Below, piece by piece: positions 14,942-20,001 of a stretch of 64,000 bases of DNA. The notes under the pieces were generated by a model. That model saw only the letters and a list, made by a program, of their open reading frames with translations, searched no databases and was not told where the DNA came from. Source of the DNA: an uncultured Armatimonadia bacterium (GTDB taxonomy: Bacteria > Armatimonadota > Zipacnadia > CAVVLO01); the NCBI GenBank assembly GCA_963749155.1, contig CAVVLO010000001.1:448001-512000 (forward strand), read 5' to 3'. Made by a program: the position numbers and the translations under genes. Position 1 is the first letter of the stretch; every line of letters starts with the position of its first letter.

Positions 14942-15185
14942 CTGGCCGAAGCTCAGCCTGTTTCCCCGGAGAAAGAGGCCTTGCCCTCCGTAGCCTGGCG
15001 ACGCAGTCGCCAAAGGCGAAGGGGGGTTGCCATGGGACTTCGCCAAGGCTACGTCCCACACTGGCCGAAGCTCAGCGAAGATACTCTACCGATTAGCTGG
15101 CTTTCCCCCCAAAGCTTTCCACGAAGATACTCTACCGATTAGCTGGCCTGCCAGCCGAAGCTCGCCATCGGCGAGCGAAGGCTGG
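14942..15185. repeat. Cluster of GCCGAAGCT/CGAAG REP-like hairpins and a 26-bp direct repeat abutting the tmRNA 3' end
   Basis: CTGGCCGAAGCTCAGC at 14942 and 15061; CGAAGATACTCTACCGATTAGCTGGC at 15076 and 15122; hairpin 15151-15185. Confidence 0.8.
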
Positions 15186-15532
15186 TGGAGGCGGCGGGAA
15201 TTGAACCCGCGTCCGAAAAGCAGTGCTACAGCCACATCTACGAGCGTAGTCCGCCTTTAGGTCTCGCCTGGCTCACCCAGCGGACGCGGTTTACCTGGCC
15301 AGCCCGGTTAAAGTCTCGGTCAACCGTTCGGGCCGCCAGTTGACCAACAAGCCACAGTTTTGTGACGGTTCCCCTCGCCCCCCGTGGCCGGGGCGGGTTC
15401 ACCGGCTGCTAGTTAAGCAGCGATAGCCAGATTGTCGTTGGCTTTTTTAGCTTTGCCACACTTAACGGGCGTCGTGGCCGTCCCGGCTCGCAGCAACTGT
15501 CACTTGGCAATCCGTCGAAGCCGATCGCCCCC
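15183..15532 (-). ncRNA. ssrA: tmRNA, tag reading frame ANDNLAIAA* (15413-15442)
   Basis: 5' GGGGGCGAUCGGCUUCGAC and 3' GGUUCAAUUCCCGCCGCCUCCACCA with G3-U acceptor pair; internal GCC AAC GAC AAT CTG GCT ATC GCT GCT TAA. Confidence 0.97.
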
Positions 15533-15554
15533 ACTTGCTGTTACTTCAACACTT

Positions 15555-15574
15555 ATGATAGCACATCTGTTCCG
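15555..15574 (-). promoter_or_regulatory. tmRNA extended -10 promoter (TGcTATCAT) overlapping a LexA-like GAAC-N4-GTGC box
   Basis: Minus strand reads CGGAACAGATGTGCTATCAT ~22 nt upstream of the mature 5' end. Confidence 0.55.
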
Positions 15575-15605
15575 CTTTTGGATGGCCTTCTTGCGGTGAA
15601 CCCGC

Positions 15606-15752
15606 CTACACTTGCCCGCTCCAGCCTGCCCGAATCAGCATCACATCGAACTGCCACCAGGGCAGCTCATCCAGCCTTGGATCAAAGGGCCCCAGAAACC
15701 CATAAGCCCGCGCGACCAGCTCGCGCGCCCCAAGCTCTGGAGCCCTCATCAG
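15606..15752 (-). CDS. gpT-like -1 frameshift extension (48 aa) of the tail-assembly-chaperone-like gene; not in the ORF track
   Basis: The -1 frame after G GGA AAC reads LMRAPELGARELVARAYGFLGPFDPRLDELPWWQFDVMLIRAGWSGQV*. Confidence 0.7.
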   Translation of the reverse strand: MMRAPELGARELVARAYGFLGPFDPRLDELPWWQFDVMLIRAGWSGQV

Positions 15753-16420
15753 TTTCCCAGTTCAGCCTCGTTCCTCGGCTCCATCTCCTGATAAGCCTCA
15801 AGCAGCTTGTAGAACACCTCGGGCGCCAGTCCCCGCACTTCTTCGATCTCGGTAAAATACCGCGCGTCCTTCCCTGGCTCGAAGGTCGCCCGCAGCACTA
15901 CCTCGTACTCCCACTCTTCAACGAAAGCCAGTTTGGCCAGCTCGAGGCGACGCGCTTCCACTAGTCGCGCGTCCAGTTCGCCCTCTTCCAGCCTCACCAG
16001 TTCTTCCTCCAGCGCCTCTCTTACCGCCTGCCCATACTGCGCGCGCTTCTCGGCGACTGTTTTGAGTCTCTCCTCGTACCCCTTCTCGGCTTCTTCAAGC
16101 TCTGCTTCGCTTGCGCAGAAGCCCTTCGCTGGATCCCCCAGGGCAGGTTTCGAGGGGGTGGGGAAGCGATGTGACGCTTCCTCCTCGATCACCGGCATCT
16201 GCGCGGCCACGAGATAGCCTGCCTTCTTCTCCGACCGCCACGCAAGCGCCAGATCGTCCCTTGCTTCTTCCAGCCGCGCATCGGCTCGCTCCAGCGCGCT
16301 TCTCAAGGCCGCCTCTCGAGCGGCAACCCCGAGGGTGCGCAATTCTACTGCCTCCACTCCGCCAGCCCCATCCTCAAGTTCCAGCACCTGCTTCGTCCTG
16401 TAGAACTCGCTCAGCCGCAT
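15749..16420 (-). CDS. Phage tail assembly chaperone (gpG)-like protein
   Basis: Acidic helical 223 aa; N-terminal VELRTL strand; C-terminal FTEIEEVRGLAPEVFYKLLEAYQEM; ends CTG GGA AAC TGA slippery site. Confidence 0.65.
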   Translation of the reverse strand: MRLSEFYRTKQVLELEDGAGGVEAVELRTLGVAAREAALRSALERADARLEEARDDLALAWRSEKKAGYLVAAQMPVIEEEASHRFPTPSKPALGDPAKGFCASEAELEEAEKGYEERLKTVAEKRAQYGQAVREALEEELVRLEEGELDARLVEARRLELAKLAFVEEWEYEVVLRATFEPGKDARYFTEIEEVRGLAPEVFYKLLEAYQEMEPRNEAELGN

Positions 16421-16444
16421 CGTTTGCCCCTTTCTGCTTCAGCG

Positions 16445-17485
16445 CTACCTTACCGCTGTCGAGATCGTCGACTTTGCGAACGCCATATCGTTCGCCAGTT
16501 CTCTTCCAATCGCCGCGCCTGCATCCCTCGCCACCTTGCCCAGGTTGCCCGAGTAGTCCTGCAGGTTCACGATTACCGTCGGACTCGCTTTGGTGCTGCT
16601 TGCGCTTGTCCCCCCCGACATCGACAGGTTGTACAGGTACGGCGCGCTGTCCCACGTCTGGGGCGCGTTGTAAGCCTTCCCAACCTGTGACTTCGGTTTG
16701 CTCGATTTGCTGCCCCCGCCAAACAAGCTGAGCCCCAGCCCGACAACCGCGCCCACCGGCCCGCCAAGCGCGAACCCCTGCAACGCTCCCGACAGGGGCG
16801 ACAGTCCCCCGCTCTGAGCCTGGGTGTACATATCCGCCAGCCCGAACACCTGAGGCCACGTCCGGTCGCCGCCGATCCCGAAACCCGACAGGCTCCCCGC
16901 CTTTGAGAACTGCTGGCTGATCTGCTGGAACCATCCCTGCTGCCCCAGGCTTGCCTGAAGCTGGTTCGCCATCAACGTCCGAGTGCCGAAATACCCCCCT
17001 CGACTGTTGCCGAGGGCCATCGAGGCTAGCGCCTGCCCCAGGTATCTGTCCGCTGCCGTGCTTGCGGAGGCCGGCTTCTTGCCCGCCGCATCCGGCCCCC
17101 CAAGTTCTGGGATGTCTCCCGCCGCTGTTGCCGCCCACTGGCCTGCTCCCCCTGCCTTGCCACTCTGCCCACTTGCCAGGCCAGGCGCAGCTCCTACCGC
17201 ATCTGCCTGTGGAACACGCCACAGGTCCTTGCCTCCGCTCCCGATGCCGCCACCGCCGCTACTAGCGGCCACCTTCCGCAGCGCCTCCGCGAGCAAGCCT
17301 TCCAGCGAGCCTGTGCTCCGCTGCCAGCTCCCAGGCGATTCTGTGCCCACACCATTTTGCGCCAGCCGCTGGTTTGTCCGCCTCAGTTCCTCCGCAAGCC
17401 GACCGAAAGCCCCCTCGTTCAAGCTTCGCACGCTCTCGGTTAACTCGCCCACCTTTCTCGCTACCTGGTCCTCGCTGCCTGCCAT
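16445..17485 (-). CDS. Short tape-measure-protein-like protein (346 aa)
   Basis: GGAGG RBS; N-terminal coiled coil; Gly/Ala/Ser/Gln-rich; GALQGFALGGPVGAVVGLGLSLFGGG and C-terminal TVIVNL...AIGRELA resemble tape measure C-termini. Confidence 0.55.
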   Translation of the reverse strand: MAGSEDQVARKVGELTESVRSLNEGAFGRLAEELRRTNQRLAQNGVGTESPGSWQRSTGSLEGLLAEALRKVAASSGGGGIGSGGKDLWRVPQADAVGAAPGLASGQSGKAGGAGQWAATAAGDIPELGGPDAAGKKPASASTAADRYLGQALASMALGNSRGGYFGTRTLMANQLQASLGQQGWFQQISQQFSKAGSLSGFGIGGDRTWPQVFGLADMYTQAQSGGLSPLSGALQGFALGGPVGAVVGLGLSLFGGGSKSSKPKSQVGKAYNAPQTWDSAPYLYNLSMSGGTSASSTKASPTVIVNLQDYSGNLGKVARDAGAAIGRELANDMAFAKSTISTAVR

Positions 17486-17553
17486 CTTGTCCTGCCTCCG
17501 TTCTTGCGTCTGCCTACACCCTCTTCCCAGCCGCCGCGCCAGTTCTTCACGGA

Positions 17554-17648
17554 TTGTCATATATAATGACAAAGCGCCAGCCTCCAATTGCTCCGTAAGG
17601 CAATCTATGAATCAGCGCAATGTATTTATATTGACCAACGCTTGTCAA
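17554..17648 (-). promoter_or_regulatory. Sigma70-like promoter and two palindromic operators for the tail-like module
   Basis: Minus strand TTGACA-N18-TACATT; TTGAC-N8-GTCAA at 17631-17648; TTGTCAT-N5-ATGACAA at 17554-17572. Confidence 0.55.
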
Positions 17649-17708
17649 AAACATCTTATCCTTCGCCTTTGCTGCCTGTCCCCTCTCCCTTCGGAGATAA
17701 GCCTGACC

Positions 17709-17734
17709 GGGGTGCAGGGGCAAGCTGCCCCTGC
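17709..17734. repeat. REP-like palindrome GGGGT-GCAGGGGCA-agc-TGCCCCTGC
   Basis: 9-bp perfect inverted repeat at 17714-17734. Confidence 0.55.
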
Positions 17735-17768
17735 CTGGCTGCACCGTTGCCTCGCCTTTCCGCAGGGG

Positions 17769-17797
17769 TTGAACCTCTCTTGCTTCACTGCTATAAT
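17769..17797 (+). promoter_or_regulatory. Sigma70 promoter for tRNA-Val/thrS
   Basis: TTGAAC-N17-TATAAT with extended TG. Confidence 0.8.
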
Positions 17798-17835
17798 CTC
17801 GGAACTACGTCCCTTGGGAGGCGTACCAGTTGAGT

Positions 17836-17910
<75 letters not shown>

Positions 17911-17927
17911 CTCTACTGCACTAGCTG

Positions 17928-17964
17928 GCCTGCCACCGGCAGGCAGGCCTGCCCTTTGCAGGCC
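17928..17964. repeat. Two tandem GCCTGC/GCAGGC hairpins after tRNA-Val
   Basis: GCCTGCC-acc-GGCAGGC and GGCCTGC-ccttt-GCAGGCC. Confidence 0.5.
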
Positions 17965-18051
17965 CGGCTTCCCTCGGCAGGCTGCCTCGTTTGTTGCTCC
18001 TCTTTCGTCCCGGGCGCCCAGTAGGTTCCCTTGCACAGGAGTGTGATTTTC

Positions 18052-19980
18052 TTGTCACCAGTAGTTAAAATTACCTTGCCCGATGGCGCGCAGCTTGAGG
18101 CCCCCCAGGGCGCTACATTGCTCGAAGTCATCGCCCAGATAGGCCCCAGGCTTGCCAAAGCCGCCGTTGCCGCAATCGTAAACGGCCAGCTCCGCGATGT
18201 CCGCGATGCGGTGGAAGAAGACGCCACTCTCGAGGTGCTTACAGCCAAGGATCCCCGTGCCCTCGAGGTGCTCCGTCACAGTGCAAGCCACCTGATGGCC
18301 CAGGCTGTCCGACAGCTCTTCCCTGGCACGAAGGTCGCAATCGGCCCTTCCATCGCCGACGGTTTCTACTACGACTTCGACACCGAGGTCGCCTTCACTG
18401 AAGCTGATCTCGAAGCCATCGAATCGCGTATGAACGAGCTCGCCAAAGCCGATATCCCGCTCGAACGGATGATCCTGCCCGTTGCTGACGCCATCCGGCT
18501 TTTTGAAGAGCTGGAAGAGCCTTATAAAGTCGAGCTGCTTAAAGACCTTGAGGTTGAGACGGTCACGCTCTACAGGCAGGAGTCCTTCCTCGACCTTTGC
18601 CGGGGCCCCCACGTGCAGTCCACAGGTGCCCTTGCGGCCTTCAAATTGCTCTCGGTGGCTGGCGCCTACTGGCGCGGAGACGAGCACAACAAGATGCTTC
18701 AGCGCATCTACGGCACGGCCTTCGGCGATGCTGACGGTCTGGCTAAGCACCTGAATCTGCTTGAGGAAGCCAGGCGCCGCGACCACCGCAAGCTCGGTCA
18801 GGAACTCGGCCTTTTCAGCATCCAGGAAGCCGTTGGGCCTGGCCTCGTCCTGTTCCACCCCAAGGGCGCTCTGCTTCGCAAGCTCATCGAAGATTTCGAG
18901 CGCGATATGCACCTGGCCAACGGCTACGACCTCGTCGTCACGCCCCATATCGCCAGTCAGGACCTCTGGGACACTTCTGGCCACACGAAGTTCTATACCG
19001 ACAATATGTTCTTCCTGAACGTCGAAGATCAGGATTATGTCCTTAAACCGATGAACTGCCCCTTCCACATCCTGATTTACAAGTCGTCCACGCGCAGTTA
19101 TCGCGACCTGCCGATGCGCTATTTCGAGCTGGGTACGGTCTACCGCTACGAGCGCTCCGGCGTGCTGCACGGCCTTTTGCGCGTCAGGGGCTTCACCCAG
19201 GATGACGCCCATCTTTTCTGCACGCCGTTGCAGCTTCAGGCAGAGCTTATCAAGCTCATCGCTTTCGTGAAGAATATCCTCGGCGCCTTCGGTTTTTCCG
19301 AGTATAAGGTCTATCTCAGCACCCAGCCCGAGAAGTCCGTTGGCGCCCAGGACCACTGGGATATGGCCACCGAAGCCCTGCGCCAGGCCCTTGAGGCTAC
19401 CGGCCTTGAGTACCAGGTTGATCCAGGCGAGGGCGTCTTCTACGGCCCCAAGATTGACATCAAACTTGTGGATGCCCTCGGCCGCCAGTGGCAGTGCTCG
19501 ACCCTCCAGGTGGATTTCAATATCCCCGAGCGGTTCGATGCCACCTATATCGGCGAGGATGGCCAGGAGCACCGCACGGTTATGGTCCACCGCGCCTTGC
19601 TTGGCTCTCTGGAGCGTTTCATTGGCTGCCTTATAGAGCATTACGCGGGCGCCTTCCCGATGTGGCTGGCTCCCGTCCAGGCTGTCGTCATACCCATCGC
19701 CGAGCGCCATCACGATTATGCCAAGCAGGTTGTGGCGAAACTGAAAGCCGCCAAGGTCCGAGTGACTCTTGATGCTCGCTCCGAAAGCGTCGGCTACAAG
19801 ATACGCGAGGCCCAGACCCAGAAGTTGCCTTATATGCTTGTGGTTGGCGACCGCGAAGCCGAGGCAGGCCAGGTGGCTGTCCGCCGCCGCGATGGCACCG
19901 ACGAAGGCGCGCTCGATTTGGCAGCTCTTGCTCTTCGCCTGGCCGATGAAGGCAAGGCGCCAGAGTTCACGCTGGACTAA
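18052..19980 (+). CDS. thrS: Threonyl-tRNA synthetase
   Basis: TGS domain, LRHSASH, DLCRGPH, RDHRKLG, KPMNCP, FTQDDAH, HRALLGSLERF; TTG start after AGGAG. Confidence 0.98.
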   Translation: MSPVVKITLPDGAQLEAPQGATLLEVIAQIGPRLAKAAVAAIVNGQLRDVRDAVEEDATLEVLTAKDPRALEVLRHSASHLMAQAVRQLFPGTKVAIGPSIADGFYYDFDTEVAFTEADLEAIESRMNELAKADIPLERMILPVADAIRLFEELEEPYKVELLKDLEVETVTLYRQESFLDLCRGPHVQSTGALAAFKLLSVAGAYWRGDEHNKMLQRIYGTAFGDADGLAKHLNLLEEARRRDHRKLGQELGLFSIQEAVGPGLVLFHPKGALLRKLIEDFERDMHLANGYDLVVTPHIASQDLWDTSGHTKFYTDNMFFLNVEDQDYVLKPMNCPFHILIYKSSTRSYRDLPMRYFELGTVYRYERSGVLHGLLRVRGFTQDDAHLFCTPLQLQAELIKLIAFVKNILGAFGFSEYKVYLSTQPEKSVGAQDHWDMATEALRQALEATGLEYQVDPGEGVFYGPKIDIKLVDALGRQWQCSTLQVDFNIPERFDATYIGEDGQEHRTVMVHRALLGSLERFIGCLIEHYAGAFPMWLAPVQAVVIPIAERHHDYAKQVVAKLKAAKVRVTLDARSESVGYKIREAQTQKLPYMLVVGDREAEAGQVAVRRRDGTDEGALDLAALALRLADEGKAPEFTLD

Positions 19981-20001
19981 CCAGCCCAACCAGAACGCAT
20001 A

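Follow-up and report, generated by a model that had tools for sequence, protein, structure and literature searches.

A probable tail assembly chaperone G/GT pair with a slippery heptamer at the stop codon in an uncultured Armatimonadia bacterium

The stretch of DNA analyzed here (the window, 64,000 nucleotides [nt], positions 448,001 to 512,000 of the forward strand of contig CAVVLO010000001.1 in assembly GCA_963749155.1) comes from an uncultured Armatimonadia bacterium and carries on its minus strand two overlapping open reading frames (ORFs), of 223 and 47 amino acids (aa), which meet at a slippery heptamer. We consider it likely that these ORFs constitute a tail assembly chaperone G/GT pair joined by a −1 slip of the ribosome on G GGA AAC. 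A gpG/gpGT-like product had been proposed in an earlier, sequence-only reading of the window, and three independent lines of evidence, namely the conservation of the signal, the synteny of the relatives and the predicted fold, now support that proposal. The features found at the junction are the following.

15749..16420, minus strand: G-like tail assembly chaperone ORF (putative) in the 0 frame, 223 aa plus stop, with an ATG start and aaagggg ahead of it
15752..15758, minus strand: slippery heptamer G GGA AAC in X XXY YYZ phase, abutting the TGA stop
15606..15752, minus strand: T-like extension in the −1 frame, 48 codons plus stop, containing the 47-aa ORF; close variants are P0004-P0007
15685..15747, minus strand: predicted 63-nt RNA hairpin, a candidate frameshift stimulator, starting 4 nt 3' of the heptamer

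The 223-aa ORF ends in GAA CTG GGA AAC TGA, with the TGA at 15751..15749 of the minus strand; coordinates and sequence both agree with the earlier claim that a correctly phased G GGA AAC stands at the stop. The GGA codon within it accounts for 12.6% of Gly codons in the window genome. Past the heptamer, the −1 frame continues as CTG ATG AGG and translates as LMRAPELGARELVARAYGFLGPFDPRLDELPWWQFDVMLIRAGWSGQV, with its stop at 15608..15606. Translation confirmed that this frame is open for 48 codons and that the product of about 271 aa suggested earlier is right, since the joined 0 and −1 frames encode 271 aa. The −1 frame opens just 3 codons ahead of the first post-slip codon. The ATG of the 47-aa ORF (15749..15747) is the second −1 codon and overlaps the stop of the 223-aa ORF as TGATG. 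The window locus has the three elements looked for in a tail chaperone pair, which are a second ORF in the −1 frame, an overlap and an in-phase heptamer within the overlap.

Codon usage is gene-like in all three annotated frames of the locus, the third being a 380-aa frame of a tape-measure-like gene that lies upstream of the pair. Codon-usage scores were 0.427 bits per codon for the 223-aa ORF (its other frames scored negative), 0.235 for the 47-aa ORF and 0.106 for the 380-aa frame. For reference, in-frame 47-codon windows of real genes scored 0.28 ± 0.15 and −1 frames scored −0.68.

A separation of G from T could also result from a sequencing or assembly indel within what is really one in-frame gene, and the sequence-only reading had named a fusion of the frames in polished reads as the outcome that would undo it. 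The frames stay apart. Two independent metagenome contigs are ungapped at the junction: X2 spans 15190-15898 with 5 differences, 0 gaps and an identical heptamer, and X4, which spans 15703-17950, has 55 differences and a single gap, located at 17679. The 6 close homologues agree with this layout, as do the distant loci described below, 12 of 12 of which have the same −1 arrangement. We give the indel explanation practically no credence. DNA runs containing the locus came from 12 studies (sediment, digester, wastewater, bioreactor and freshwater), and all three ORFs were intact in strains of several studies.

Homologues of the 223-aa protein were found at two distances. The close ones share 96, 93 and 83% identity with it, each being 223 aa long and ending in LGN, and there is in addition a truncated member from the Joint Genome Institute (JGI) data; all 6 close homologues have 223 aa or the same end. 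The 83% homologue is P0003, and P0011-P0013 are more remote relatives at 27 to 39% identity (39% for P0011). The close variants of the 47-aa ORF number three, at 47 to 48 aa. A HMMER search of 1.84 billion cluster representatives added three remote homologues of 222 to 247 aa, and profile A2, built from these three, was compared with 401 genomes of the phylum and detected a homologue in 13 genomes besides that of the window, 12 of them from family f36 and one from f47. Of the 15 genomes of family f36, 12 have a homologue, and so do 10 of its 11 genera; the 3 genomes without one all belong to a single genus. The distant homologues share 23 to 28% identity with the window protein. A single-protein search of 40 relative genomes of the same class gave no match, and related loci were found neither in JGI metagenomes nor in viral contigs (queries A1, the 380-aa protein and A2).

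The chance level of the local pattern was gauged in 3297 proxy genes built from the window genome. An in-phase heptamer abuts the stop in 8 of the 3297, where about 7.2 were expected at an in-phase rate of 0.0022 per codon, and in 5 of these 8 the −1 frame is open for at least 40 codons. Taken alone, the heptamer at the stop is therefore not beyond the chance rate within the window genome, a result that tells against leaning on it by itself. Because the local pattern is at chance level, it is the comparison with relatives that decides the frameshift question.

In the distant relatives an in-phase C CCA AAA stands at the junction in all 12 loci that reach it (one further locus stops at a contig edge before it). 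The junction codons are CTC CCA AAA in 11 of the 12 and TTC CCA AAA in the other, which keeps the required C. When aligned, the relatives' L-P-K occupies the same columns as the L-G-N of the window protein, five residues after a conserved Y.E.EP motif. Both codons are rare in the relatives' genomes, with CCA making up 5.7% of Pro codons and AAA 8.3% of Lys codons. In 10 of 10 loci tested, tblastn placed a homologue of the 47-aa peptide directly after the G homologue and without exception in the −1 frame (E 1.8e-4 to 0.015 in a small database). This −1 peptide is conserved among the relatives from its second codon (.LSRHPGFRLNDLICRRYPGAYRHPLDPALL.LPWWLKEAIA.L); the extensions share 26 to 37% identity with the window peptide, and R, Y, P, D and LPWW are invariant. 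The 0-frame stop of the relatives lies 3, 27 or 36 nt past the heptamer, and the 0-frame tails are unrelated to one another. As judged by sequence comparison, the slippery pattern is kept at one codon in two clades that use different nucleotides for it (G GGA AAC versus C CCA AAA). The earlier proposal had been made to depend on whether homologues conserve the heptamer, and an in-phase heptamer with a −1 extension was present in 12 of 12 loci at the aligned column.

Start codons are scarce in the extensions of the relatives. The −1 frame of L004 and L012 is free of ATG, GTG and TTG all the way from the stop that precedes it to the end of extension codon 15, and the first 15 extension codons of L026 contain none either; in the remaining loci a TTG or ATG occurs solely inside the conserved peptide and without a Shine-Dalgarno sequence. 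Because the −1 frame holds no usable start codon, the T peptide of the relatives can be made only by way of a −1 shift.

In the window itself the second codon after the slip is an ATG, which overlaps the stop and is absent from the relatives. Reinitiation at this TGATG had been offered as the alternative to frameshifting. It holds that coupling at TGATG replaced the ancestral frameshift and that the locus encodes two separate proteins, a 223-aa chaperone and a free 47-aa T peptide; the heptamer would then be a leftover or a weak ribosome-binding stretch, and both routes could coexist. Since that ATG is found there alone, the alternative is possible in the window lineage only and falls away for the relatives. 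Overlaps of stop and start by 1 nt are common in the window genome (127 of the 3297 proxy genes have a TGATG-type overlap followed by an open downstream frame), so a free T peptide is possible, and the close variants of the 47-aa ORF have been called as separate 47- to 48-aa proteins starting with MRAPEL. The fused 271-aa form had no match in databases, whether by database search or by comparing the 47-aa query with 47 longer candidate proteins, which is weak evidence; a missing fused form is expected for a real frameshift and equally for two separate genes. In E. coli, moreover, XXXAAAC sites are described in a passage of Atkins et al. (2016, PMC5009743) as much less shift-prone than XXXAAAG. 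Set against these points, a Shine-Dalgarno-like sequence was not found at the proper distance from the ATG, where GGGA alone occurs 5 nt upstream, and the G of the ATG sits in the base of a very stable hairpin. The heptamer remains in phase at the exact ancestral codon, by way of the rare GGA, and the relatives apparently produce the same peptide without a start codon. A free T peptide would also lose the linkage of G to T, which is the point of the fusion in the lambda model as outlined in the same passage. We regard the replacement of the frameshift by coupling as unlikely, though worth keeping in view.

A CGCGCGA-gctgg-TCGCGCG hairpin had been noted downstream of the junction. That hairpin is present; it is only the tip of a larger and closer one, the predicted 63-nt hairpin, so the earlier description stands for the element and not for its extent. 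In a 70-nt fold the window hairpin has a free energy of −38.8 kcal/mol and a z score of −4.2, with equal stability reached in 1 of 200 shuffles; in a 136-nt fold the region has a z score of −2.1. The relatives show a different kind of element, in that GGAGG-like stretches occur 3 to 10 nt upstream of C CCA AAA in 7 of 10 of them (L002-L012; 24 nt scanned, without control windows). The predicted anti-Shine-Dalgarno pairing of these stretches is −7.4 kcal/mol or stronger, and the residues that they encode vary. They may represent a candidate upstream stimulator of the dnaX type.

The identity of the G-like protein was addressed through its predicted structure. An AlphaFold2 (AF2) model of the 223-aa protein, made with alignment A4 of 15 sequences, has a predicted local distance difference test score (pLDDT) of 87.4. 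Comparison with tail chaperone structures had been suggested as a check on the earlier reading, and the best match of this model among 48,161 chains of the PDB is the HK97 tail assembly chaperone (2ob9_B; Z 8.6, root mean square deviation 3.2 Å, 87 of 104 residues), a Z that is moderate for a helical protein given helical background rows at Z 5 to 7.5. The second match is YqbN (3klu_A; Z 7.5, 91 of 119 residues); YqbN/XkdN we take to be a tail chaperone family. By these two matches the 223-aa model has the fold of a tail chaperone. Both matches cover model residues from about 1 to 218, at a sequence identity of 7 to 14%, and the model contains a long helical hairpin insert at residues of about 55 to 160. 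A Foldseek search of BFVD returned weak rows only, two of which are named tail assembly chaperone (E 0.48 and 0.79). A first AF2 model, made with 4 sequences (pLDDT 69), had given no meaningful fold match in BFVD, in PDB Foldseek or VIA-wide, and a sequence profile search of the PDB gave nothing relevant. Viral hypothetical proteins were nearest in a protein atlas (0.90 and 0.93), with Phage_TAC_4 at 0.83; these are leads only. Position, recoding signal and fold agree in saying that the 223-aa family is a tail assembly chaperone, insofar as sequence comparison and a structural model can indicate it.

One further structural match, ORF19 of a Vibrio cholerae element resembling phage-inducible chromosomal islands (PDB 5ir0_B), covers the entire chaperone core over model residues 8..222 (94 of 103 residues aligned, Z 5.2). 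It hints, weakly, that chaperone-like proteins can occur on satellites and bears on a satellite-like reading of the locus, which is taken up below.

In the relatives the G homologue with its −1 extension lies within a cluster of tail genes. At L013 (genome G162) this cluster occupies L013:7325-17682, with the genes in the following order.

Gene 1: glycosyltransferase
Gene 2: 230-aa protein with a weak match to phrog_807
Gene 3: 159-aa terminator-like protein (tail terminator phrog_4204, 2.9e-6)
Gene 4: 321-aa tail tube protein (PF18906, 6.8e-25; phrog_290, 1e-33)
Gene 5: G with the −1 extension
Gene 6: 259-aa Gly-zipper protein in the tape-measure position
Gene 7: 916-aa tail protein (phrog_1887)
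Gene 8: 566-aa protein, called a tail protein
Gene 9: M15 peptidase

Nine further loci have an identical order as far as each of them reaches, and those that reach downstream also show genes 7 to 9. The chaperone gene of the relatives is thus found in its usual position, with G/T between the tail tube gene and the gene in the tape-measure position. No head genes were found within the 20 kb examined, and the cluster has the look of a domesticated, F-type-tailocin-like element whose tape measure is very short. A complex prediction for the T peptide and the tail tube protein of the relatives scored 0.00 and, having been made without controls, is evidence neither way. As to its distribution, family f36 has the tail-only cluster in 12 of its 15 genomes, spread over 10 of 11 genera, and the cluster always adjoins the same glycosyltransferase gene, the order being shared by L014, L015 and L016 and by the short loci L003-L012.

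The surroundings of the pair in the window are different from this cluster, as the following features show.

16445..17485, minus strand: gene like that in the tape-measure position, 346 aa from the MAGSED start, with a Gly-zipper segment and an N.P..W...YLYNLS motif
17619..17648, minus strand: promoter-like site TTGACA-18-TACATT upstream of the three-ORF unit (10/12 in a consensus scan; a pattern match only)
15183..15532, minus strand: transfer-messenger RNA (tmRNA) gene (ssrA), found by ARAGORN, the downstream boundary of the unit
17836..17910, plus strand: tRNA-Val(GAC), found by ARAGORN, the upstream boundary of the unit

The unit consists of three minus-strand ORFs, in the order tape-measure-like gene, G and T, followed by the tmRNA gene, and the three appear to be transcribed together, as a unit bounded by tRNA-Val and ssrA. 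It is flanked by thrS, infC, pheS and pheT on one side and by cysD, cysNC, a sulfotransferase gene and a DUF1801 gene on the other. The open frame of the tape-measure-like gene extends to a TTG at 17587 (16445..17587, 380 aa), with MAGSED at codon 35; because the relatives' proteins begin with MAGSDD, the MAGSED start at 17485 is probably the real one and the protein 346 aa long. The alignment of the relatives' proteins (A6) matched the tape-measure-like protein of the window in hhalign (probability 88%, E 3.2e-6), and a search of the own genome with profile A6 had this gene as its sole match (E 9.7e-5).

Apart from the chance rate and the points that favor reinitiation, several observations weigh against reading the window pair as G/GT. 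The phage-type tail context that the sequence-only reading had drawn on did not hold for the window, as the locus lies outside any phage tail cluster and a tail tube gene was not found in the own genome by PF18906, tube profile A7 or tblastn, that genome being 100% complete by markers and in 7 contigs. With the tail tube not detected, the usual binding partner of the T domain is missing. The order of the genes in the window is noncanonical, the tape-measure-like gene lying ahead of G, and the usual position of a chaperone gene between those for the tube and the tape measure, which is a contextual feature rather than a property of the protein, is not found in the window itself. A conserved downstream RNA structure was not found in the relatives, where RNAalifold with 10 relatives gave no more than a weak hairpin of 5 bp, placed 47 nt past the heptamer, and single folds of 6 relatives gave z scores of −1.5 to +0.5. 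There was no RNA run among those listed as containing the locus. Lastly, no Pfam or PHROG chaperone family was matched by the 223-aa protein (E <= 0.01) or by the 15 members of alignment A4 (E <= 1), for which only scattered single-member rows appeared; none of the three ORFs (223, 47 and 380 aa) had any Pfam or PHROG match at E <= 0.01. Since the known chaperone profiles fail to match, the proteins would represent a new sequence family of a known kind.

Whether such a reduced unit is maintained was assessed from differences between strains, scored on the best-supported 40 of 97. Over the whole unit there were 23 synonymous and 10 nonsynonymous differences, with a ratio of nonsynonymous to synonymous polymorphism (pN/pS) of 0.14 (binomial P 8e-8). 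The ratio was 8 synonymous to 5 nonsynonymous in the 223-aa ORF (pN/pS 0.20), 14 to 5 in the tape-measure-like gene (pN/pS 0.12) and 1 to 0 in the T extension. Purifying selection acts on both the chaperone pair and the tape-measure-like gene.

This selection bears on the possibility that the locus is a decaying prophage remnant, with three ORFs that are unexpressed or functionless and a heptamer and hairpin that have simply not yet eroded. A tblastn search of the own genome with the other proteins of the relatives' cluster, the terminator, distal tail and lysis proteins included, gave no homologue; this absence and that of the tail tube would be expected of a remnant, as would the rearrangement of the gene order relative to intact clusters and the adjoining tmRNA and tRNA genes. 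Genes of these two kinds are common integration regions. What speaks for a living unit instead is that the three ORFs are intact across strains, that the differences are skewed 23 to 10 toward synonymous ones, that codon usage is gene-like and that a promoter-like site lies ahead. No att-like direct repeats bracket the unit. We think it very unlikely that the locus is a remnant.

The G/GT reading can be put as a sequence of steps. A minority of ribosomes would undergo a −1 slip at G GGA AAC, immediately ahead of the TGA, with the strong hairpin that begins 4 nt further on, and possibly a pause at the stop, as an aid. The slipped ribosomes would continue in the −1 frame and produce a 271-aa GT fusion beside the 223-aa G, with a 48-residue T tail carrying the conserved R..Y...P.D....LPWW motif. 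The arrangement would have been inherited from a siphovirus-like tail gene cluster, of which the window genome would retain only the chaperone pair and the tape-measure-like gene, with their order swapped. What the analysis shows is the layout of the locus, its homology, the conservation of the heptamer in position and frame, the synteny of the relatives, the match in fold and the selection; for this organism we infer the slip, its efficiency and whatever role the pair has without a tail tube.

A more speculative and rather improbable reading is that the chaperone pair and the tape-measure-like gene are a free-standing, selected module, and not a relic, in a bacterium without a tail tube gene of its own. 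If so, the module may act, as a satellite-like or exapted unit, on tails belonging to infecting or helper phages, for example on their assembly or length, as a parasite or in defence. Alternatively, it may supply the chaperone of another filament, the ratio of G to GT being kept because it is still relevant.

Comparison with known systems places the pair close to that of phage lambda, whose heptamer is GGGAAAG. In both, two ORFs overlap, the second lies in the −1 frame and the first has an X XXA AAZ heptamer close to its end, and in the relatives the gene likewise lies between those for the tail tube and the tape-measure position. They differ in that the window protein has no sequence-family match, that G is longer (223 aa, with the helical hairpin insert) and T has just 48 residues, and that the window heptamer ends in C, with no tube gene present and the tape-measure-like gene upstream. 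The HK97 chaperone (2ob9) and YqbN of B. subtilis (3klu), the two best structural matches of the window model, are set apart from it by the 7 to 14% identity and by the large helical insertion in the window protein. Frameshifting in E. coli dnaX is stimulated by an upstream Shine-Dalgarno-like element and a downstream hairpin. Like dnaX, the window has a strong hairpin a few nt downstream of a chromosomal −1 shift site (putative here), and 7 of 10 relatives have GGAGG-like stretches upstream; the dnaX protein is unrelated and its heptamer is another one, the shift site being given as A AAA AAG in a passage of PMC5009743. The same source gives a ratio of 30:1 for lambda gpG and gpGT and places the g-t shift of the haloarchaeal virus HCTV-1 at G_GGA_AAC. 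There an identical heptamer serves tail chaperone g-t expression; HCTV-1 is an archaeal virus, likened here by the heptamer alone, and the window heptamer directly abuts the 0-frame stop. The relatives' cluster resembles F-type (flexible, noncontractile) tailocins in having tail genes only, with no head genes in 20 kb, across 10 of 11 genera; it differs in being known from its genes alone and in having a protein of about 259 aa in the tape-measure position, and the window genome is without the cluster.

A −1 frameshift in tail chaperone genes is already textbook knowledge, and the window pair is a further example; a passage describing PRFect counts 2397 joined chaperone genes in SEA-PHAGES genomes (PMC10274946). 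What the pair would add is a sequence family of tail assembly chaperones without a Pfam or PHROG model, together with a clean case in nature of a recoding signal that is preserved at one codon as a pattern and not as a sequence. Annotators should join the 223-aa and 47-aa ORFs into a −1 frameshift product, and the startless T of the relatives would otherwise be missed. The less ordinary part is the context, a selected module of chaperone and tape-measure-like genes in a genome without detectable tail genes. This orphan module and the conserved tail-only cluster of the relatives point to domesticated, tail-derived machinery in poorly studied bacteria of anaerobic sediments and digesters.

Two minor features were observed next to the unit. 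A 46-nt element is present in 2 tandem copies (85% identity) at 15076-15167, just past the 3' end of the tmRNA gene, and a 21-nt partial copy of it (86%) lies at 17922-17942, just past the 3' end of tRNA-Val; these copies may be a repeated terminator or an element of the repetitive extragenic palindromic (REP) type rather than an att-like bracketing of the unit. A 644-aa open frame at 18055-19989 on the minus strand runs antisense to thrS (18031..19980, plus strand), has no family match and is an ordinary GC-rich shadow ORF.

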